A DNA stretch of 45,432 nucleotides, taken from positions 68,627 through 114,058 of the IMG/VR virus record IMGVR_UViG_3300042261_000976. One strand, 5' to 3'. The DNA is from a virus. Of the stretch, positions 25,908 through 35,547 are shown piece by piece. The notes beneath the pieces are model-generated. The model saw only the letters and a list, made by a program, of their open reading frames with translations, searched no databases and was not told the origin of the DNA. Numbering within the stretch: position 1 is the first letter of the stretch; each line of letters begins with the position of its first letter. Position numbers and translations under genes: made by a program.

Positions 25908-26706
25908 ACTTTTTATAGTTTATTATGTGACTTTCTTTTATCTTATTATTTTCGTGTAATTTTTTTATAAATCTTAGAAGTTCTTTTACTCCTAATATGG
26001 AACCGTTTTCTATATTTCTCCATATTATGTTCTCATAATCTTTTAGATTTATATTATTTATGTATTCCACATATTTATGTATTGGAATAACATCTGTTTC
26101 GTTATTTTCTTTATAACAATATAAGGAAAAGACTTCACTTGGATCCTCTGGTTTGTGTGTGTAAAAAACAAAAGATCTTTCTATCCAAGAATGAAATTGT
26201 CTTAAAAAATCATTTATTCTATCTCTAGTACCACCTGAGTAATAACTATCATCAATAAAAATAAATGGTTTGTATGTTATATTTGATTTTCTTTGTTTTA
26301 TAATTTCAACTTGATTATTCTCATCTTCTTTAACTTTCCTTATTCTTCCACTAGTTATAACAACATTACCATCGAAATCTATTTCACCATCTTCGATTAA
26401 TTTGTAAAGGTGAAGTCCAAAACTTCCTGAAGAAATTATATCAAAATCATTTCCTATTTTTGATTCCATTATAGAGAACATTTCTCTGATAATATCAATA
26501 TTTTGTGGTTCTATTATAAATTCATCTAATCTTTCCAAAAATGGAAACATAAAAATGGCGATATCTTCTCCTTCATATATGGATTTAATAAAATTAACAA
26601 AAATTTCAGCGTTCTCTTTATTGATACCTTCTTCTACTTCCAGAAAATCATCGACTTTTCTAGATAAAAGTTCATCTACAAAATTAGATATTTTAATATT
26701 TTTCAT
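25897..26706 (-). CDS. Phosphoribosyltransferase (PRTase)-type-fold protein
   Basis: PRPP-binding-loop-like motif PFIFIDDSYYSGGTRD (hydrophobic x4-DD-x3-SGGT). Confidence 0.35.
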   Translation of the reverse strand: MKNIKISNFVDELLSRKVDDFLEVEEGINKENAEIFVNFIKSIYEGEDIAIFMFPFLERLDEFIIEPQNIDIIREMFSIMESKIGNDFDIISSGSFGLHLYKLIEDGEIDFDGNVVITSGRIRKVKEDENNQVEIIKQRKSNITYKPFIFIDDSYYSGGTRDRINDFLRQFHSWIERSFVFYTHKPEDPSEVFSLYCYKENNETDVIPIHKYVEYINNINLKDYENIIWRNIENGSILGVKELLRFIKKLHENNKIKESHIINYKKFMR

Positions 26707-29084
26707 TCAGCTAATTTAAAATTTGTTATTTGAAGCCAAGGCCACACCTCTTTAACTCTAATTATAGTGCCACTATAGCCTTGAACATCATTACAATGGC
26801 TTATATCAACAATTGTCCACGAATCGCTCGTTTGATGAGGAATCCATTCACCGGAATTATAGACGCTAGTTTTATCAGTATCTTGTGTAGTTTTATCTCT
26901 CCAATAAAAAACTCTATCTCTATTTGAACGAACAATATCTCCAATACTATATTCGTATTCCTTAAATTCAGAAGGTTGTTCGTTGCCGAATTCACCTTTT
27001 TTATACCATTTGATTCCTTCTTCTAAAGTTCCTCTGATATTTTTATTGTAATATTCTCTCCATTTTGTATTTAAATTTTGCCAAAAAGAGCCACCTTCAG
27101 GGGTACTACTAAAAGAAAGAGATTTATCTATTAAATCTAATCCCTTCTTTTGGTTATGCCAATATTTTGGAAAATCGTTCATGACTTTAGAATTAATATA
27201 GTTTATGTATGTATCATAAGCCTTATTTTTTATTAAGAAATTTCTAAATTCGTCACTTATTATAAAATCATTATATTCATTGACATCAACTTCTTCATCA
27301 TCACTTAAATCACCAGCTCCATACCACTTCACTTTACCTTCTTTTAATTCGCCACGATGATTTGGATCAATACCCGCTTCTGGTGTAGTATAAAACCTCA
27401 TATAGTTTATCCATATTGCGTCTTCTTTTCTACACCATTCTTTATCATATTCACACCATTGAGCGTCAGAAACTTTAATTCTATCTCCAAGATAATCTAT
27501 TACATATTCTTGACCCGGTTCAATAGACGGATCAGCAAGTTTTTCTATATAATTTAAGTCCATTTCTTTCTTTTTCTTATCTTCTACTTTTTCCATATTC
27601 GTTGTTTGAAACCAAGGCCAAGATCCTTCCAATTGTACAATTGTTCCCGTGTAACCTTTTACATTATCCGCATAATCTACTGCCATAACAACTCTTTTAT
27701 CAAATTTATAACTACCGTCCCATTTACCTGGATTAGAAATACTTGTATCTTTTATATTCATTTTACTATTTTTAGAGTCGTCCCAATAATTAATTAATCC
27801 TTTTCTCTCTACTATATCACCTATCTTAAAATCTAATGCAGTATCATCTTTTCCTTCTTCTTCACTAAATTTTCCATCATTGTACCATTTAACTCCCTCT
27901 CGAATATTAGGATCCCTTATAATTATAGGATGATCGTTATTTACTTCAAGCACACCGTATCTTTTAGTATCAAATAATATAATTATTTGATTGCGTTTTT
28001 TAGATAAAGCTGGCAATAATCCACAAATTCTACCTTTATATAAGCCTACATTCTTTGTATTGGTATGAAATTCTATTTCTTTTCCTTTTAATTGATTTCT
28101 AATAGCTTCTCTTTTTTCATTCAGATATTTATACCAAAATTTCACAACTGTATATGTATTATCACTATTTAAATTTTCATCTAACCAATCTTCTTCACCG
28201 TAAGGGTCTCTATCTAAATTCATCAATCTTATTTCCTCTTTCTTTTTCCACATTTCTATTCTTCTCTGTTCTATAAATTCAGCATTATTTATAAAATCTT
28301 TTAATTTTATACATTTATTATATAGTTTTTGACTTCCATTGTCAGCCCTTTCTTGTGCTGTGCCTAAAATATATTTATTTACTATATTTATTCTTAAGCA
28401 ATCATTTGAACTGACGTTTGGAATATTTTCGGTTGGTTTAATACCACTTTTCCATATATATCCTAATTTTTCTAAATAATTTAGAAAGTCATTTATATCT
28501 TCCTGAGTTTCAAATTTAAAATATATCCAACCATTATATTCTTTAATATTTTCGTTAATTGTTTTTTCCTGCACATTCCAACCCCAATCTTCTTCGCCAT
28601 AAGGATCTAATTTTGGATCACCTGGTTTTTTCTTATATTTAAGACTTCCCGATTTCATAAAATCATCGAAAGACATTCTTTCTAGTCCCAATGATTCTAT
28701 TTTTTCTTCATCTTCACTTCTAACAAAACATTGATCACCATTATGAAAATAGAAAAATTTCATCAATTTTTTACTTCTCCCATATTGTTCTTTCGATTTA
28801 TATGTCTTTTCACCAATCTCATAGAGTTTCATAATGACTTTCATCATTTGATCGTAATCGTCATACATTATTGCCTTATTTCTTAAACTTTCATTAAGTA
28901 AAGCCTCATTTAAAAATCTTTTATATGATTTGAAAATGTTTTCATTCTTTGTTAGAGTTCCTATTTCTTTTAGTAAATCTTTGATATTTGTAATATATCC
29001 GTTATTAATTTTACCTTCTAACGCATCCATAGGTAAATCCATATCCATATCATGTAATACTTTCAAAAGTTTATCTTTTTCCAT
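26703..29084 (-). CDS. Large (793 aa) protein with internally duplicated domains and two DPYGEEDW motifs
   Basis: Two copies of ...D..GY(T/S)GTI(V/I)(Q/R)..(G/E).WPW(F/L)Q(T/I)TN, and three copies of G(I/V)KWY..G.F........IGDIV. DPYGEEDW occurs at aa ~162 and ~294. Confidence 0.4.
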   Translation of the reverse strand: MEKDKLLKVLHDMDMDLPMDALEGKINNGYITNIKDLLKEIGTLTKNENIFKSYKRFLNEALLNESLRNKAIMYDDYDQMMKVIMKLYEIGEKTYKSKEQYGRSKKLMKFFYFHNGDQCFVRSEDEEKIESLGLERMSFDDFMKSGSLKYKKKPGDPKLDPYGEEDWGWNVQEKTINENIKEYNGWIYFKFETQEDINDFLNYLEKLGYIWKSGIKPTENIPNVSSNDCLRINIVNKYILGTAQERADNGSQKLYNKCIKLKDFINNAEFIEQRRIEMWKKKEEIRLMNLDRDPYGEEDWLDENLNSDNTYTVVKFWYKYLNEKREAIRNQLKGKEIEFHTNTKNVGLYKGRICGLLPALSKKRNQIIILFDTKRYGVLEVNNDHPIIIRDPNIREGVKWYNDGKFSEEEGKDDTALDFKIGDIVERKGLINYWDDSKNSKMNIKDTSISNPGKWDGSYKFDKRVVMAVDYADNVKGYTGTIVQLEGSWPWFQTTNMEKVEDKKKKEMDLNYIEKLADPSIEPGQEYVIDYLGDRIKVSDAQWCEYDKEWCRKEDAIWINYMRFYTTPEAGIDPNHRGELKEGKVKWYGAGDLSDDEEVDVNEYNDFIISDEFRNFLIKNKAYDTYINYINSKVMNDFPKYWHNQKKGLDLIDKSLSFSSTPEGGSFWQNLNTKWREYYNKNIRGTLEEGIKWYKKGEFGNEQPSEFKEYEYSIGDIVRSNRDRVFYWRDKTTQDTDKTSVYNSGEWIPHQTSDSWTIVDISHCNDVQGYSGTIIRVKEVWPWLQITNFKLAE

Positions 29085-29189: not shown

Positions 29190-29792
29190 ATGAATTGGTA
29201 TTCTGTATTTTATTGGCTCACTGTAGCCAGTGGTGTGAAAGATTTTTTCGATGTAGCGTCGAACATTTTCACATGGTTTGCTGTACTTTCCTTCATCGCA
29301 CTTGTCATTATTACAATTGGCAAGTCTATTACTGTTAGTGAAAATCGTTTGAAGAATTCCGAAGACGATGTTAAAGATTCTGATTTCAGGGCTTGGGATA
29401 TGATTAAGAAATATATCCAGCCTTTTTTCTACACCATGTTAGGTCTTTCTATGATTACTTGGACTGCATGGACACTTGTCCCTTCAAAGAAAGATTGTGC
29501 TATTATCATCGCTGGTGGAACTGTTGGTAACTTCCTACAATCAGACACAAGTGCTAGGAAAACTATTCCGAAGGCATTTAATCTGTTAAATGCTTATCTT
29601 GATAAGGAGTATAATGAGGTACTTACTTCAAGCGAAAGGAAAGAACTAAATGTTCAAACAAAGGAAGATATTAAAGAAGCGAAGAAAGAAGAATTCCTTG
29701 ATAAAATCACTAAAGCCGGAACAAAACTTGGTAAAGATGAACTAAAGAAACAGTTAGATGAATTTTTAGGAGATACAGTACCAACAAAGTAA
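29190..29792 (+). CDS. Small membrane protein (3 predicted TM helices, charged C-terminal tail)
   Basis: Hydrophobic segments FYWLTVASGV, WFAVLSFIALVIITIG and MLGLSMITWTAWTLV, then a K/E-rich tail. The only plus-strand gene in this region, bracketed by terminators. Holin or immunity-type function is possible but not demonstrable. Confidence 0.35.
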   Translation: MNWYSVFYWLTVASGVKDFFDVASNIFTWFAVLSFIALVIITIGKSITVSENRLKNSEDDVKDSDFRAWDMIKKYIQPFFYTMLGLSMITWTAWTLVPSKKDCAIIIAGGTVGNFLQSDTSARKTIPKAFNLLNAYLDKEYNEVLTSSERKELNVQTKEDIKEAKKEEFLDKITKAGTKLGKDELKKQLDEFLGDTVPTK

Positions 29793-29825
29793 AAAAAAGG
29801 GAACCAAATTGGTTCCCTTTTTTTA
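29791..29825. terminator. Bidirectional rho-independent terminator
   Basis: AAAAAAAA-GGGAACC-AAATT-GGTTCCC-TTTTTTTT, sitting exactly between convergent genes 29190..29792 (+) and 29826..31406 (-). Confidence 0.8.
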
Positions 29826-31406
29826 TTATTTTCTTCTATGTTTTATTATATAATCAGTTATTATTTCTGGTATATTTATTTCTGATATAACAGAAAATGT
29901 TGGGAAGTGTGGTGAAGAATTGGCTTCCATTACATAATATTTTCCAGTAACTTTATCCTGAATAATATCAAAACCAACTATATCACATATTAAATGTTTT
30001 GATATATCCTCACACATAGCAATTATATCTGGTGGTAATGATCCTTTTACAGCCTTTCCACCTCTTGCAACGTTAGCTCTAAATTCCTTTGAACCTTTTA
30101 TTCTTTCTTTCTTTATTACTAGTTCAACTTTATTCTTTATAGAAATAACTCTATAATCTCCGTCATTAGGAATAAATTTTTGAATCAACATCAACTTATT
30201 ATTATATCCAAAATGATCTACTAATTGTGACATTTTATCAATCTTGAAAACTCCTTCTCCTCTATTTAGATTAACATCTTTAACGATGACTGGAAATCCA
30301 AATTCTTTAACATGTTGAATAACTCTTTTCGTTAATTTTGTTGCCATTATTGAAGGTATATAAGGATAACCCAAAGATTCTAATAAATGAAATTCATAAG
30401 CCTTATTATCTAAATCTTTATATGTGCCATATTTGAGATATGGAATATTGTGTTTATCTAAATAATGGATTAACATTTTAACAACGGTAGAGAAATTAGA
30501 CATAAAACCAAAGAAAACAAAATCATATTCTTTAAGTCTCATATTATCAATATAATAATCATTATTGACTCTATAAATATCATCGTAATTACAAAAATCT
30601 ACTAATGAATCTTTTAATTTATCCTTGAATAAGAGTGGGAATAACTCTGACATTTGACGTTTTCCCTTAAAGTAATTGTGTTTATCTTTTTCACCGTGAG
30701 TATCTATGGCTAAATCAAATTGTAAGAATAAAAATTTATGTTTGAATGCGACGTCTCTTTCTACAGCCTTGAATCTAAACATTTTATATGGGATTCTATA
30801 ACCTATTTCTATATGAGGTTCTCCACTTTTATAATATCTTCCTTTACTATCGCATACAGTTCTTACTTTATGAAATGGTTTTGATTTCAGAAATTCAATT
30901 TGACTATCGTTCAGATCATTAAAATCTTCACAAATAACATAATCCCCAACTTGAATAGGCAAACTATCAATATCAAATGCTACATCATCTTCATCAAGTT
31001 CTTCGCCTTCTTTACCCATTAATGTGTCCATAACATCTTTTGGTAAGAACTTAAAATATGGATGTTCTTCAAGATCTTTTTTACTGATCTTTTTCTTTTC
31101 TTTCTTTTCTTTCTTTTTTAAGAAATCAAGATATGGATTTCTACTAGTTTCTTCTCCTCCTTCTTCTTTATCCTTTTCATCGCTGATAGGATTTTCATCC
31201 GGAAACAATGGTAGTTCTATTTGATCGTCTTTTTCCACAACACGTTTGCCTGGTTTCCCATATCCAAACATATTACTAAATGGTTTATCCCAATCAAAAT
31301 TAAATCCAAATGGTTTCTTTGAAGGGTCTGGTGGAGGTGCTTTCTTTTTAACATCTTTTTCTTTTTTCGCCTCGAAATAAGATGAATATTTTTGAATTTC
31401 TGTCAT
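29826..31406 (-). CDS. ATP-grasp ligase of the RimK family, with N-terminal K/E-rich low-complexity region
   Basis: C-terminal 300 aa: FPVIVKDVNLNRGEGVFKI, LIQKFIPNDGDYRVISI, EFRANVARGGKA, DIVGFDIIQDKVTGKYYVMEANSSP, the order and spacing of RimK/glutathione-synthetase-type ATP-grasp motifs. N-terminal 130 aa are KKEKKEKKK / EE-rich and disordered-looking. Confidence 0.65.
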   Translation of the reverse strand: MTEIQKYSSYFEAKKEKDVKKKAPPPDPSKKPFGFNFDWDKPFSNMFGYGKPGKRVVEKDDQIELPLFPDENPISDEKDKEEGGEETSRNPYLDFLKKKEKKEKKKISKKDLEEHPYFKFLPKDVMDTLMGKEGEELDEDDVAFDIDSLPIQVGDYVICEDFNDLNDSQIEFLKSKPFHKVRTVCDSKGRYYKSGEPHIEIGYRIPYKMFRFKAVERDVAFKHKFLFLQFDLAIDTHGEKDKHNYFKGKRQMSELFPLLFKDKLKDSLVDFCNYDDIYRVNNDYYIDNMRLKEYDFVFFGFMSNFSTVVKMLIHYLDKHNIPYLKYGTYKDLDNKAYEFHLLESLGYPYIPSIMATKLTKRVIQHVKEFGFPVIVKDVNLNRGEGVFKIDKMSQLVDHFGYNNKLMLIQKFIPNDGDYRVISIKNKVELVIKKERIKGSKEFRANVARGGKAVKGSLPPDIIAMCEDISKHLICDIVGFDIIQDKVTGKYYVMEANSSPHFPTFSVISEINIPEIITDYIIKHRRK

Positions 31407-31487
31407 TAGGGAGACTTCTTTTTTAAATATAGAAAATATTATTTGATTTGTTTTCCTATTTTCCTTATATATAAAAAATTAAAAATC

Positions 31488-31518
31488 AAAAAAAAGGGGA
31501 CTTTTAATCCCCTTTTTA
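31488..31518. terminator. Bidirectional terminator-like hairpin
   Basis: AAAAAAAA-GGGGA-CTTTTAA-TCCCC-TTTTTATT, immediately downstream of the stop of 31519..31986 (-). Confidence 0.6.
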
Positions 31519-31986
31519 TTAGTACTTAAAATCATTTAAATTGTCGTGCCAAGTAAATCCATTATCAAACCCTTCCTTTTTGCCAAATCCTGGTAAAGGT
31601 GTTGATACGTGCCACCCATTTGGTTCTTCCACGTATGGTTTAACATAACCAAAGTGACTATTTCCTGTAGAACCTATTGGTGTGATTTCTTTTTTGTTCA
31701 AATAACTATCATAATTAGTATAATTATAATTCCATGAATTTGTATCTATTGGAGTATAAGTTGGAGTTTCATATTTCATAGTATAATCTGGAACACTATT
31801 ATAATCATAATTATTATAATTGAAGTAATTATTCACCTGATTATTATAATAGTCGTTATTTAGATTATTATTATTGTAATCATAACCATAGGAATAATTG
31901 TTGTTGTTCTGATCGTAATAACCATAACCATTGTTATAGTTATATTGATCCATTGGGTTCATTTGATAATTGTTGTCGAAGAACAT
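31519..31986 (-). CDS. N/Y-rich (prion-like composition) protein with ordinary C-terminal domain
   Basis: First ~90 aa are almost only N, Y, D, Q, G (NNYQMNPMDQYNYNNGYGYYDQNNNNYSYGYDYNNNN...). C-terminal 60 aa are of normal composition. Best Shine-Dalgarno in the window (AAAGGAGCTTATATG). Confidence 0.4.
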   Translation of the reverse strand: MFFDNNYQMNPMDQYNYNNGYGYYDQNNNNYSYGYDYNNNNLNNDYYNNQVNNYFNYNNYDYNSVPDYTMKYETPTYTPIDTNSWNYNYTNYDSYLNKKEITPIGSTGNSHFGYVKPYVEEPNGWHVSTPLPGFGKKEGFDNGFTWHDNLNDFKY

Positions 31987-32179
31987 ATAAGCTCCTTTCT
32001 TTTTGTTTTTTGTGTGAGGAGCCTATATTTTATGGAAAGACTCAACTCACAAATTTGATTTCTGTTTTCAAATTTGAATAATTCTTTTTTTTTTTATATA
32101 TAAAATAATAATGCTAGTTTAACACTTTTAGTAGTTAAATAAAGTTAAACGTTGTTAAATAAAGTTAAAGGGATTGATA

Positions 32180-33058
32180 TTAAACCAATCCCTTTATTTT
32201 TAATGCTCTTAATAGTCTTGTTAATCCTATTCCTCCACCATATCTTTTGAACATCTGTAGAGATAAATAATCTTCCAATTCTTCTTCAACTCTTTCTTGT
32301 GAAAATTCATTAAAAAGAAGTTTAGCATACATGCCATCACTGATTGTATGGAAGCTACTACGCATTTGTTCAACATCAGATTCTCTCTCAGCACTACCAA
32401 ATGTTTCTATACCACAAATTATAAAATCACATTTATTAAATAATTTTTCACCAGTCATTTTATTGTTTCCTTCCTGTTTCATATTCCAAAAAGGACTTGT
32501 TCTTTCCGGGAAATTAGTTATAGCAACTACATCGCCGTATTCTTCCCACATTTTAGTTTCATGTTCTGCTTCAAGAATTTCAACACCATATCTCTTGCAC
32601 AATTCGTCATATTCTATAAAAGGTATATCATCTACCGATTTCACAAACCCCATATGAACTGACAATTCACTTAAAGTTTTTAACAAATCTTTATATTCTC
32701 CTTTATGTTCAAATTCAAACATAGGGAATATTTTATCATGTCTTCCTTCGATTGGATTTGGTTCATCTCTATAACTTGTTGTTAAACAATATATGCCTTC
32801 AGATTCTTCTGGGTATGTCATTAATAACATTTCAAGATTCATCTGATTAGTTTGACTCAACGGCCAATTTTTACCATCAAATGTAAATGATCTGAGAGTT
32901 TTTGGATCTTCACAAGCAGCCATTATTGATCTAATCGGTTGTGGATAAACCTCTTTGTAATTTTTTTGCATAAAAAAATCCCTTAGTTTAACAATCATAG
33001 AATTAAACTCTTCGGGACTAATAACTTGTTGATTAAAAATTTTCTTTTTCATAAGCAT
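32180..33058 (-). CDS. Class II aminoacyl-tRNA synthetase catalytic-core paralog lacking an anticodon-binding domain (EpmA/GenX- or AsnA-like amino-acid ligase)
   Basis: Motif 1-like FFMQKNYKEVYPQPI; motif 2 TTSYRDEPNPIEGRHDKIFPMFEFE (fRnE...rH..EF.m.E.E); motif 3 GGGIGLTRLLRAL (GxGxGxxRL). 292 aa, only the catalytic core. Confidence 0.6.
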   Translation of the reverse strand: MLMKKKIFNQQVISPEEFNSMIVKLRDFFMQKNYKEVYPQPIRSIMAACEDPKTLRSFTFDGKNWPLSQTNQMNLEMLLMTYPEESEGIYCLTTSYRDEPNPIEGRHDKIFPMFEFEHKGEYKDLLKTLSELSVHMGFVKSVDDIPFIEYDELCKRYGVEILEAEHETKMWEEYGDVVAITNFPERTSPFWNMKQEGNNKMTGEKLFNKCDFIICGIETFGSAERESDVEQMRSSFHTISDGMYAKLLFNEFSQERVEEELEDYLSLQMFKRYGGGIGLTRLLRALKIKGLV

Positions 33059-33114: not shown

Positions 33115-33891
33115 CTATTTTTTATTTATTTTAGTTTTTTCTATTATTATAAAATTCTTCGATTTGTTATATCTTAAAATACTAGAAAAACTAAAGTTTT
33201 TTTCTTTTGAAAATTCTTTTAATTCATCTCTGCTTTTTATTTCAAATATATTATCATTGTTTTTTATTTTATAACAAACTGAATTTCCGTTATTTAATCC
33301 AAATCTTTCTATTTTCCATTTTTCTTTTAATTGTTCGGAATGAGTTTTATCATAAAAAGGATTTTTTTCTCCAATTTTAGCTTTTCTTATTTTTTCTTTT
33401 GATTCTTCTGTATGTTCAAAAATATGTCCTTCGTGTCCAATTAAAGATTTACTAATATTTTTTCTTCTCTCTTCTTTTTTCCTTTCTGACATATTTCCAA
33501 AAGCTATTATTACAGATTTTGATATTTTATCTTTTGTTGAATTATTATGCTTAAATCCACTTTGTCCTTCCCCACCATCGCTAAAATTAACAAGTGGTCC
33601 ATTTTCCATTCTTCCTATTTTTAATATTAATTCTTTTTCTTTCATAAAAGCTTTGTTTTCCGATAAATTATCATATACCTTTTTAACAATAGGAGTAAGA
33701 CCTAATTCTTTAATTTTACTAATTTTATTTAATTTATAAGAATTATTAATTGAATGATTCAAATGATAGAACATTCTATTGCCAATTCCTTTGCCTACAT
33801 AAAAAGGTTCAAAATCAAACTCTAAATTTTCATAAATGAATTTTCCTGGTTTTCTAGGATCTAAATAGATATAAACATAATATTCTTCCAT
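33115..33891 (-). mobile_element. GIY-YIG homing endonuclease (Seg / I-TevI-like, free-standing)
   Basis: N-terminal YVYIYLD...EPFYVGKGIGNRMFYHL (GIY...YIG...R...H). C-terminal NUMOD3-like helices (SKSLIGHEGHIFEHTEESKEKIRKAKIGEKNPFYDKTHSEQ). Located directly after the truncated DNA polymerase gene. Confidence 0.65.
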
Positions 33892-34032: not shown

Positions 34033-35547
34033 CTAATCCGAATATTCTAGTTCCATTATTAAATCTTCTTCTGCTGCCTTCAATTCTCTCTTATGTTCTT
34101 CCAATTTATCATGATCTTTCATCATGAAATCTTTATATTTCTTTCTATCTCCATATACATCAGTCATTACTTGATTAACTATACCAGTTTCATTCTTGAA
34201 CACAGTATCGTTTAACAATTTAATATCTGTAGGTTCTAGTTCAACTCTATGTCCATTAAATACTGCAAATTCTTTATTAGGTGATAAAACTCCTTTATAA
34301 GAATCTGCTGATATATTGAACATTCTCATACAAGTAGGGTACAAACTTGCGAAGTCATAACAAGCTGTCCACATCGCCATTCCCTTGATTGTATCTTTTA
34401 CCCAACCACCTTTAACTGCTTTTTCTAAAGATTCTATTACTGTATCTGGTAAACTTTTTTCTAATTTACAAAGAATAACATTTTTTTCTTCTTTAAGTTT
34501 TCTTCTTAAGATGCCTTCAGTAACAGGTAAAGTAGAATAAGCATCTAATATCTTTATTCTAGATAATGTAGCGATGCCATAAAGAATATCAACCCATTTA
34601 GTAGTATCATGTATTTTTTGAACTAGAATAGAGTCAACAGCATTATAAAAAATGAATTTCTTATAATCTGTAGATGCTAATGTTTTAAGTGTTCCTTCGT
34701 AATTGATTTTCTTTACACCAAGAATACCATCAGAAACAAAGTCTAAACTGCTTGCCTCTTTTACTTTAATGATACTATTCCATTTTTCATATAATTCCTG
34801 ATAGTCAACTATAATTCTATGTCCTGGTAATTCGCAGAAAGATTCTCTTTTTTTACCACTTTTATTATCTCTTTTAAATGGAGGTCTAAGAACTCTCGTT
34901 GGTGATGCTGCGGTAGGATCAACTCCTATTTTTCTAGCTCTATTAACAAGAAATACCCAGTCGTATTCTGTAAAGTTCCAACCTGTTATGATTGGCATTT
35001 TTGGTACAAATTTCTCAAAGAAATTTAGTAACATTTCATATTCACTCTTATATCTTACGAATTTGAAATCATAGTCAGCGTTGAATTTAACAAAATAATT
35101 ATTAATGTCTTCTCTAATGGATTTTTCTTGCTCAGCACTCAAAGCGTCAAGCCCCATTACCATTACTTTATTCTTATTGACTATAGATATTGATTGTATT
35201 GCGCTTTCAGCTAATTGAGGTTGCGGCTTTTTATCCAGAATTTCGTTTTCAATATCAACAAAGAAAATTTCTGGCTCTACATATTTCATTACAATTTCTT
35301 GTTCTTCTTTCGGAAGACTATCAATAAAATCGTATACAGAATATCTATCTGGAAATCTTGTATAGACTTTCTTTACTGCTTTACCATCCCATGTAACATA
35401 TTGACCGTCTTTATCTCTATCATCGTCAGAGCAAACAACGTATTTGGTTGGATTTGGCCATGTATAGTACTTATGTTTTATCCATCCACCTTCACCGATG
35501 TAAGACAACATGAGTTTTTGATTCTTATATTCGTAATCTACAACCAA
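34033..35547 (-). CDS. Family-B DNA polymerase, N-terminal fragment only (T4 gp43 '43A'-like: 3'-5' exonuclease domain through polymerase motif A)
   Basis: Exo I IFFVDIENE (T4 CDIEVTG); Exo II MPIITGWNFTEYDWVFLVNRA (T4 PAIFTGWNIEGFDVPYIMNRV); Exo III FIFYNAVDSILVQKI (T4 YISYNIIDVESVQAI); motif A YDFASLYPTCMRMFNIS (T4 FDLTSLYPSIIRQVNIS). Ends ~70 aa after motif A. Motifs B and C are absent. The annotated start is a TTG at 35547; the first ATG is at 35511. Confidence 0.75.
   Translation of the reverse strand: MVVDYEYKNQKLMLSYIGEGGWIKHKYYTWPNPTKYVVCSDDDRDKDGQYVTWDGKAVKKVYTRFPDRYSVYDFIDSLPKEEQEIVMKYVEPEIFFVDIENEILDKKPQPQLAESAIQSISIVNKNKVMVMGLDALSAEQEKSIREDINNYFVKFNADYDFKFVRYKSEYEMLLNFFEKFVPKMPIITGWNFTEYDWVFLVNRARKIGVDPTAASPTRVLRPPFKRDNKSGKKRESFCELPGHRIIVDYQELYEKWNSIIKVKEASSLDFVSDGILGVKKINYEGTLKTLASTDYKKFIFYNAVDSILVQKIHDTTKWVDILYGIATLSRIKILDAYSTLPVTEGILRRKLKEEKNVILCKLEKSLPDTVIESLEKAVKGGWVKDTIKGMAMWTACYDFASLYPTCMRMFNISADSYKGVLSPNKEFAVFNGHRVELEPTDIKLLNDTVFKNETGIVNQVMTDVYGDRKKYKDFMMKDHDKLEEHKRELKAAEEDLIMELEYSD

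Follow-up and report, generated by a model that had tools for sequence, protein, structure and literature searches.

The ATP-grasp ligases RimK and LysX/ArgX act on acidic C-terminal tails, those of ribosomal protein S6 and of LysW, respectively. Some paralogues of aminoacyl-tRNA synthetases (aaRS) have no anticodon-binding domain and are tied to special tRNAs; they are the closest known precedents of an arrangement that we find in viruses, in which such a core-only gene stands beside an atypical tRNA gene (PMC9437257). Here we describe a phage locus that encodes proteins related to both groups. It lies in a 45,432-nucleotide stretch of the IMG/VR record IMGVR_UViG_3300042261_000976 (positions 68,627 to 114,058), and "the window" refers to this whole stretch. 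The window is phage DNA with a GC content of about 30%, encoding a T4-like portal, a prohead protease and a Gp23-type capsid protein. Its minus strand carries three open reading frames (ORFs) in the same direction (Table 1), for an aaRS-like protein, for a protein rich in asparagine and tyrosine (the N/Y protein) and for an ATP-grasp protein. The nearest public complete relative is LR756501, an uncultured phage genome of 735 kb.

We put just above an even chance the reading that these are independent accessory genes, of which the first would feed pyrimidine synthesis, the ATP-grasp enzyme would target proteins with DPYGEExW tails, and the N/Y gene would be young. An earlier note, made from the letters of the window alone, had described three co-oriented genes downstream of a split polymerase and a homing endonuclease, and this description stands: the ORFs, the GIY-YIG/NUMOD3 gene and a 504-aa half of a family B DNA polymerase (PolB) are all present, and the domain calls (a PF00152 class II core, an N/Y-rich N-terminus and a RimK-like ATP-grasp fold) are right.

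The aaRS-like family and its genomic partners

Residues 20-285 of the aaRS-like protein match the class II D/K/N core PF00152 over positions 27-291 of the 308-position profile (E = 2.9e-15). Since the match begins at about residue 20 of 292, there is no room for an N-terminal OB-fold/anticodon-binding domain, which agrees with the core of about 290 aa without such a domain that had been read from the letters. The protein also matches its PHROG with E = 2.4e-78, and its AlphaFold model has a predicted local distance difference test (pLDDT) value of 93. Both motifs of the class II subclass IIb core are found, motif 2 (fRxE...R/H; R97, E99, R106, H107) and motif 3 (GxGxGxxR; G274, G276, G278, R281), and these residues are invariant in 23-30 relatives. 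A degraded pseudogene remnant, which had been named as a possible refutation, is ruled out by the intact ORF, the invariant catalytic residues and relatives that are 65-87% identical.

Among structures in the PDB, AsnRS is the best match of the family profile (E = 2e-8) and is the closest by fold too. An EpmA-type enzyme as the closest relative was rejected: GenX ranks sixth, at 15% identity, and there is no NCBIfam EpmA match, so that the analogy drawn in the earlier note is weak. In the alignment with AsnRS, the family motif QTNQMxLE falls on QSSQLYLE; the AspRS counterpart is QSPQxxKQ, whose lysine binds the side-chain carboxylate. Judged from these residues, the pocket is probably AsnRS-like. 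Canonical AsnRS features are lacking, namely the OB-fold and a sufficient score for NF003037 (32 bits vs a cut-off of 414). Altogether, the protein would be an intact adenylate-forming enzyme that arose from an AsnRS-type catalytic core.

This core belongs to a large, uncharacterised family whose members come from viruses as well as from bacteria and archaea that depend on a host. With clustering at 50% identity, an exhaustive profile search yielded 898 clusters; 209 of them match at E <= 1e-30, and nearly all of these are 270-340 aa long. IMG/VR holds more than 560 loci with a homologue, and viral carriers include the cyanophages P-SSM2 and P-SSM7 as well as huge phages. Another 357 matches, at 46-56% identity, come from GTDB species genomes, among them DPANN archaea, bacteria of the candidate phyla radiation (CPR), Rickettsiales, Coxiellaceae, Chlamydiota, Dependentiae and Pasteurellaceae. 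With these cellular homologues the window protein shares the family signature AACEDP, QTxQM, SYRxE, GxETxGSAER and GGGIG. The NCBI label of the cellular proteins is "amino acid--tRNA ligase-related protein" and no more, and the cyanophage copies are annotated "tRNA ligase". The paper that lists the cyanophage copies treats the gene as a sporadic host-like gene (PMC3037559), and our literature search for a viral AsnRS-like protein, or for an aaRS-like enzyme in pyrimidine synthesis, found nothing relevant. With its hundreds of clusters, this aaRS paralogue family is widespread, and it looks uncharacterised.

The genomic partners of the cellular homologues point to pyrimidine synthesis. On a Bandiella chromosome (L145:2950-6475), the aaRS-like gene is followed by genes for PyrF (orotidine monophosphate decarboxylase), a PyrE-like phosphoribosyltransferase (PRT), PyrD (dihydroorotate dehydrogenase) and Prs, the phosphoribosyl pyrophosphate (PRPP) synthetase. 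Phocoenobacter (L180:1617-4907) has a divergent pyrD and then the genes for the aaRS-like protein, PyrF and PRT; Coxiellaceae have the order aaRS-like, PRT, PyrF (L167:3169-5281, L151); and one viral locus (L038, 4770-12535) combines pyrimidine genes with those for a PRPP synthetase and a GMP-reductase-like protein. By tblastn, 25 of the 80 cellular loci, fetched with only 3 kb of flank, and 11 of the 114 viral loci contain pyrimidine genes within the fetched sequence; all 25 cellular and nine of the 11 viral matches are within about 3 kb of the aaRS-like gene. Two long family members join PyrD to the aaRS-like protein (P0200) and the aaRS-like protein to PyrF (P0217). As these may be fusions or merged gene calls, we counted them as evidence of adjacency only. 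PyrB and PyrC were not detected among the neighbouring ORFs scanned at the aaRS-like operons. Because the operons cover the path from dihydroorotate to uridine monophosphate without PyrB and PyrC, the aaRS-like enzyme may supply the ring precursor.

We therefore infer that the aaRS-like protein is an Asp/Asn-adenylating enzyme in the service of pyrimidine synthesis. It would activate an Asp/Asn-type carboxylate with ATP; in the simplest chemistry, the beta-carboxyl of N-carbamoyl-aspartate would be adenylated as in AsnA, and the ring would then close to give dihydroorotate. For the phage, it would be an auxiliary gene of nucleotide supply. Parts of de novo pyrimidine synthesis are known to be missing from host-adapted bacteria such as H. 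influenzae (PMC13328217). If the proposal is true, the ligase would fill missing early pyrimidine steps in host-dependent bacteria, archaea and many viruses, and would explain what supplies the PyrD/PyrE/PyrF branch of reduced genomes and viruses when PyrB and PyrC are absent. With P-SSM2 and Pasteurella atlantica (Phocoenobacter) in culture, experiments are feasible. Three points weigh against the proposal: i) neither LR756501 nor the window has PyrD, PyrE or PyrF by tblastn, ii) the link is based on cellular homologues at only 46-56% identity and iii) many viral relatives are tied to a tRNA, which points to a tRNA-related activity and which a role in pyrimidine synthesis leaves unexplained.

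This tRNA linkage is tight. In P-SSM2 and P-SSM7, an 87-88-nt tRNA(GUU) begins 9-10 nt after the aaRS-like gene, and ARAGORN together with a covariance model built here places a same-strand tRNA directly downstream of the gene in 44 of 88 viral loci, corresponding to about 32 distinct sequences. The nine viral loci with close pyrimidine genes carry this partner tRNA as well. In consensus it folds into a cloverleaf whose variable arm is long, with compensatory changes in 21 of 24 pairs. In the 24 aligned sequences, G34, U35, U36 and G73 are invariant, U1-A72 occurs in 20 and U37 in 19; U37 is very unusual for a decoding tRNA. Two further partners outside this alignment have a GUC anticodon, CCA is often encoded, and some of the partner tRNAs score below the Rfam tRNA threshold. 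Such a covarying atypical tRNA, bound so closely to an aaRS-like gene in viruses, also looks uncharacterised. ARAGORN, Rfam and the covariance model R1 with filters off find no tRNA in the window. In the whole of LR756501, none of the tRNAs combines a GUY anticodon with a long variable arm, and the best R1 matches there are tRNA-Leu. LR756501 has 59 tRNAs, including three ordinary tRNA-Asn and three tRNA-Asp. Two further elements of that genome are recorded here as observations in their own right. Two adjoining tRNAs have a CUA anticodon of the amber-suppressor type (L128:43185-43338), and a 114-nt tRNA-like element with a very long variable region lies in a tRNA array (L119:4847-4960, minus strand); it has a D-arm like that of the partner-tRNA family and scores 40.5 bits with R1, and ARAGORN does not call it.

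A joint proposal goes further: the family would be a new enzyme in nucleotide metabolism, an ATP-dependent, AsnRS-derived ligase for dihydroorotate or another orotate precursor that works with a tRNA-Asn-like RNA, and the ATP-grasp enzyme would, separately, extend DPYGEExW tags. We regard it as tentative and put it clearly below an even chance; if it is true, a dedicated tRNA-Asn-like RNA works with or regulates the viral enzyme.

Rather unlikely, in our view, is a minimalist AsnRS/AspRS that would identify a tRNA-Asn-type substrate by its acceptor stem (U1-A72, G73) and charge it. The substrate would be the dedicated tRNA in many viruses and the phage's ordinary tRNA-Asn copies in the present lineage, and the charging would help to translate an Asn-rich proteome. 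The immediately downstream tRNA(GUU) with its strong covariation, its constant G73 and anticodon positions and its prevailing U1-A72 pair argue for such an enzyme, as do the kinship to AsnRS with the AsnRS-like LE motif, the three tRNA-Asn genes of LR756501 and an asparagine content of 7.2% in the window proteome. It is at odds with the cellular loci, where a tRNA-Asn stands beside the gene in none of 80 and pyrimidine genes are found instead, with the U37 and the two GUC anticodons, which are odd for a decoding tRNA-Asn, and with the lack of such a partner tRNA in the window and LR756501.

An asparagine synthetase of the AsnA or archaeal AS-AR type (Asp + NH3 + ATP -> Asn), serving an AT-rich and Asn-rich phage, is improbable. 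The same asparagine content would suit it, and the pairing with a tRNA-Asn gene could mean a common role in "Asn supply". Against this, the family profile has no more than a weak match to 3p8t, an archaeal asparagine synthetase A (E = 0.003, 18% identity), there is no match to PF03590 (AsnA), and membership in pyrimidine operons would be unexpected; to our knowledge AsnA, unlike the aaRS-like family, is found neither in pyrimidine operons nor next to a tRNA. The AsnA-type role away from tRNA that the earlier note had considered stays a live option for the aaRS-like protein.

The ATP-grasp ligase and the DPYGEExW tails

The ATP-grasp protein scores 75 bits with the RimK family PF08443 (cut-off 21). 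Its scores are below the cut-offs of the narrower models, with 100 bits for rimK_fam (TIGR00768, cut-off 143) and 41 bits for the RimK equivalog PRK10446 (cut-off 331). A metabolic D-Ala-D-Ala ligase (Ddl) was rejected, as the Ddl C-terminal domain does not rise above its cut-off, in agreement with the RimK-type call made from the letters. The K/E-rich N-terminal extension noticed earlier is predicted to be mostly disordered, with pLDDT values below 50 over residues 1-99 and 64-69 in the rest of the extension; values of about 85-93 follow over residues ~150-235. Within the disordered extension, a motif HP(Y/F)FK(F/Y)(L/I)P (e.g. HPFFKYIP) is conserved (alignment A5). About 67 clusters share this architecture partly or fully, that is a variable disordered extension, a small domain of ~85 aa and the ligase. 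The small domain (residues ~150-235) is kept in those family members that align over 71-72% of the query, and we infer that it is a candidate substrate-recognition domain. The protein would be a ligase of the RimK/LysX type, attaching an amino acid to a protein carboxylate, and probably part of the lineage backbone. As a separate observation, one subclade (P0153, P0159, P0162, P0165, P0167, P0172, P0179) is without the FRxNxxRGG motif, its RimK-type EFRxNVxxGGKA segment being replaced by a shorter "VN-KxNI-DxRKSKKG", a change that suggests altered or lost catalysis.

Candidate substrates come from the lineage's own proteins. The YGEE motif to which the earlier note had drawn attention is real and striking: the pattern [DEN]P[YFW]GE[ED] has six copies in five window ORFs, with none expected, and LR756501 (L115-L129) has 109. 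Of these, 94 lie in ORFs with 100 or more aa, where 0.25 would be expected. The copies follow the consensus (L/E)DPYGEExW(E/D)(D/E). In LR756501, 41 copies lie within ten residues of the C-terminus, often in a tail "KRV(F/Y)(S/T)xxDPYGEExWxx*". Because RimK and LysX/ArgX act on tails of this acidic kind, the motif-bearing proteins are the most testable candidate substrates of the ATP-grasp enzyme, and acidic DPYGEExW tails on many proteins of the lineage would be its most plausible targets. The motif occurs in 13 of 113 loci, and all 13 carry the ATP-grasp gene. What speaks against a causal tie is that this association is confounded by shared ancestry, since the 13 loci are one lineage, and that the distant ATP-grasp loci L094, L103 and L106 have no motif. 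A motif about 400 times commoner than chance in a 735-kb phage, often C-terminal and in a lineage with a RimK/LysX-type ligase, makes a testable enzyme-substrate idea, and it too looks uncharacterised. If it is true, the ligase post-translationally extends acidic DPYGEExW tags on more than 100 proteins of the lineage. We found no literature on the DPYGEE motif.

Gene order in the variable slot

In LR756501 the aaRS-like gene (65% identical) adjoins the ATP-grasp gene (61-70%, depending on the aligned span) with 93 nt between them and without an N/Y gene. Relatives that share the gene for the N-terminal PolB half (polN, 74-86% identical) form a clade in which this gene is followed by a variable insert, the ATP-grasp gene and a relative of a 793-aa window protein. 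Since a single-sequence query had found only one ATP-grasp locus, an alignment-based query was then used. Of the 17 distinct genomes with an ATP-grasp gene, six also have the aaRS-like gene, which sits inside the variable insert, and 11 lack it. All six belong to the polN-syntenic clade, in which four other members go from polN to the ATP-grasp gene without an aaRS-like gene (L091/L096, L095, L098, L113). More distant ATP-grasp homologues likewise have no aaRS-like neighbour. Seen from the other side, an ATP-grasp gene accompanies the aaRS-like homologue in three of 90 viral loci (87 are without it) and in none of 80 cellular ones, and the N/Y gene occurs, among those 90, only in the locus identical to the window. 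All three genes together were found in this phage only, among the loci and genomes surveyed. Genes for GIY-YIG or related endonucleases stand at differing positions of the slot across the relatives, and the homing endonuclease marks the slot as insertion-prone.

Because the three distributions are independent, each gene has its own terminator-like hairpin and TTTTATATATA precedes two of the genes, the adjacency most likely reflects lineage synteny at a site prone to insertions, and not an obligate functional unit. The three would be independent accessory genes in a variable slot between polN and conserved downstream genes, and the slot would belong to one lineage of very large, AT-rich phages with differing homing endonucleases. 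Two observations count against independence: the order and adjacency of the aaRS-like and ATP-grasp genes are kept in the six related genomes, and in one of these (L092/L100) the order holds with extra genes, including one for RtcB, between polN and the aaRS-like gene. Since the order is kept in six genomes, a lineage-specific functional link between the two enzymes may still exist.

The N/Y protein has 27 N and 21 Y in its first 90 residues (53%) and falls, by composition only, into the N/Q/Y-rich low-complexity class called prion-like. It has no family match and no homologue in phage records, and a single homologue, P0198, among 5.8 billion proteins. P0198 has 107 aa; its C-terminal part is 79% identical and its N/Y tract is much shorter. 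Because the C-terminal domain is kept and the tract is shorter, the N/Y gene is real and its low-complexity tract is evolutionarily labile. The P0198 gene lies between polN and the ATP-grasp gene on locus L113, which has neither the aaRS-like nor the GIY-YIG gene, so that the sole recurrent neighbour of the N/Y gene is the ATP-grasp gene. The protein would be young and lineage-restricted, with a tract that grows and shrinks. The suggestion that it is a substrate or partner of the neighbouring enzymes fits in part: any such link would be to the ATP-grasp gene, as the order on L113 indicates, and not to the aaRS-like gene.

That the aaRS-like and ATP-grasp proteins jointly ligate amino acids onto the N/Y protein, or onto host elongation factor P (EF-P) or S6, as the earlier note had proposed, is highly improbable: the conserved order in six genomes, two proteins of ATP-dependent amino-acid ligase types and an N/Y gene that in two phages immediately precedes the ATP-grasp gene would fit, but the co-conservation check returned only this one phage, the distributions are independent, the N/Y gene occurs in two genomes only, terminator-like hairpins separate the genes, the relationship to GenX is weak and no EF-P or EpmB context was seen.

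The terminators that had been said to bracket the three genes are present in so far as hairpins flank the region, but one also follows each of the three genes (Table 1). The AT-rich motif TTTTATATATA has four matches in the window (0.5 expected), two of them at 31466-31476 and 32092-32105 in the intergenic regions upstream of the ATP-grasp and the N/Y gene, and may be a phage promoter element. Among nine gene starts inspected, only that of the N/Y gene has a canonical Shine-Dalgarno sequence (AAAGGAG, within 31987-32016), as had been noticed before, and the other leaders are A-rich; such a distribution would suit a host that is sparing in its use of Shine-Dalgarno sequences, and an N/Y gene that was acquired recently. 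A hairpin at 32006-32042 on the minus strand (GUGAG..GAGUCU / AGGCUC..CUCAC), in the gap that separates the aaRS-like from the N/Y gene, has ends similar to the P-SSM2 partner tRNA's acceptor stem, with z = -2.5 when the 89-nt stretch 31987-32075 is folded. As a tRNA partner it was rejected, the likeness being superficial and the tRNA covariance model giving no detection, and the hairpin may be due to chance or be a remnant.

The polN gene encodes only the N-terminal ~500 residues of PolB, with the exonuclease domain and the start of the polymerase domain including motif A, and the C-terminal half was not identified among the window ORFs examined. The split form is kept across the lineage at the identity given above for polN. 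The 793-aa protein at 26703-29084 on the minus strand has no family match and consists in part of repeated "(V/I)(K/R)WYxxG(K/E)(F/L)(S/G)(D/E)EE" units together with two DPYGEEDW motifs; partial relatives come after the ATP-grasp gene in related phages. Stop codons of 38 window genes are TAA in 33, TAG in three and TGA in two cases. PADLOC gave no defence-system match.

Table 1. Features of the locus (window positions unless a locus is named) and examples of viral partner tRNAs
Feature	Position	Strand	Remark
GIY-YIG/NUMOD3 homing endonuclease, upstream of the aaRS-like gene	33115..33891	-	
PolB N-terminal half, 504 aa, lineage synteny anchor	34033..35547	-	74-86% identical in relatives
AsnRS-type stand-alone class II aaRS catalytic core, 292 aa	32180..33058	-	PHROG 29758
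Terminator-like hairpin over the stop codon of the aaRS-like gene	32166..32196	-	Counterpart in LR756501
193-nt intergenic stretch with promoter-like motif TTTTATATATA and 5+6-bp hairpin, without tRNA	31987..32179	-	
N/Y protein, 155 aa: variable N/Y-rich N-terminal ~90 residues and conserved C-terminal domain of ~65 residues	31519..31986	-	
Terminator-like hairpin 3' of the N/Y gene	31491..31517	-	
ATP-grasp protein (526 aa, ORF 29826..31406), residues 1-145: K/E-rich extension, mostly disordered by pLDDT	30972..31406	-	
ATP-grasp protein, residues ~150-235: lineage-specific small beta-rich domain ahead of the ligase	30702..30959	-	
ATP-grasp protein, residues 236-526 and stop codon: RimK/LysX-type ligase domain	29826..30701	-	
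Bidirectional terminator-like hairpin common to the ATP-grasp gene and a convergent 200-aa gene	29792..29824	.	
DPYGEExW-type motif starts	17447, 24383, 28607, 28208, 37593, 38819		
Partner-tRNA examples	L001:6807-6894, L002:6811-6897, L021:1683-1776, about 40 other viral loci		

Comparison with described enzymes

The closest relative of the aaRS-like protein by structure is AsnRS of the archaeal/eukaryotic type (e.g. P. horikoshii, PDB 1x54), from which it differs by the missing N-terminal OB-fold and by its genomic partners. The archaeal AS-AR (3p8t) and E. coli AsnA (11as) are 14-18% identical to it. EpmA/GenX/PoxA, the EF-P lysyl ligase, is derived from LysRS. With CysRS*/SelC* and with Glu-Q-RS/YadB, which acts on tRNA-Asp, the family differs in enzyme class and amino acid, and the window and LR756501 have no such tRNA; it is alike in that a core-only gene adjoins a non-canonical GUU/GUC tRNA in half of the viral relatives.

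For the ATP-grasp enzyme, ligases of graspetides (microviridin type), which have a precursor peptide encoded next to them, offer a comparison; here the small gene is present in two genomes only, and neither a repeated core motif nor a known leader was identified. Other models are RimK, the poly-Glu ligase of S6, and LysX/ArgX, the C-terminal Glu ligases of LysW: the window protein has the same RimK-type ATP-grasp domain and differs by its sub-cut-off scores, its disordered extension of ~145 aa and the small domain of ~85 aa ahead of the ligase.

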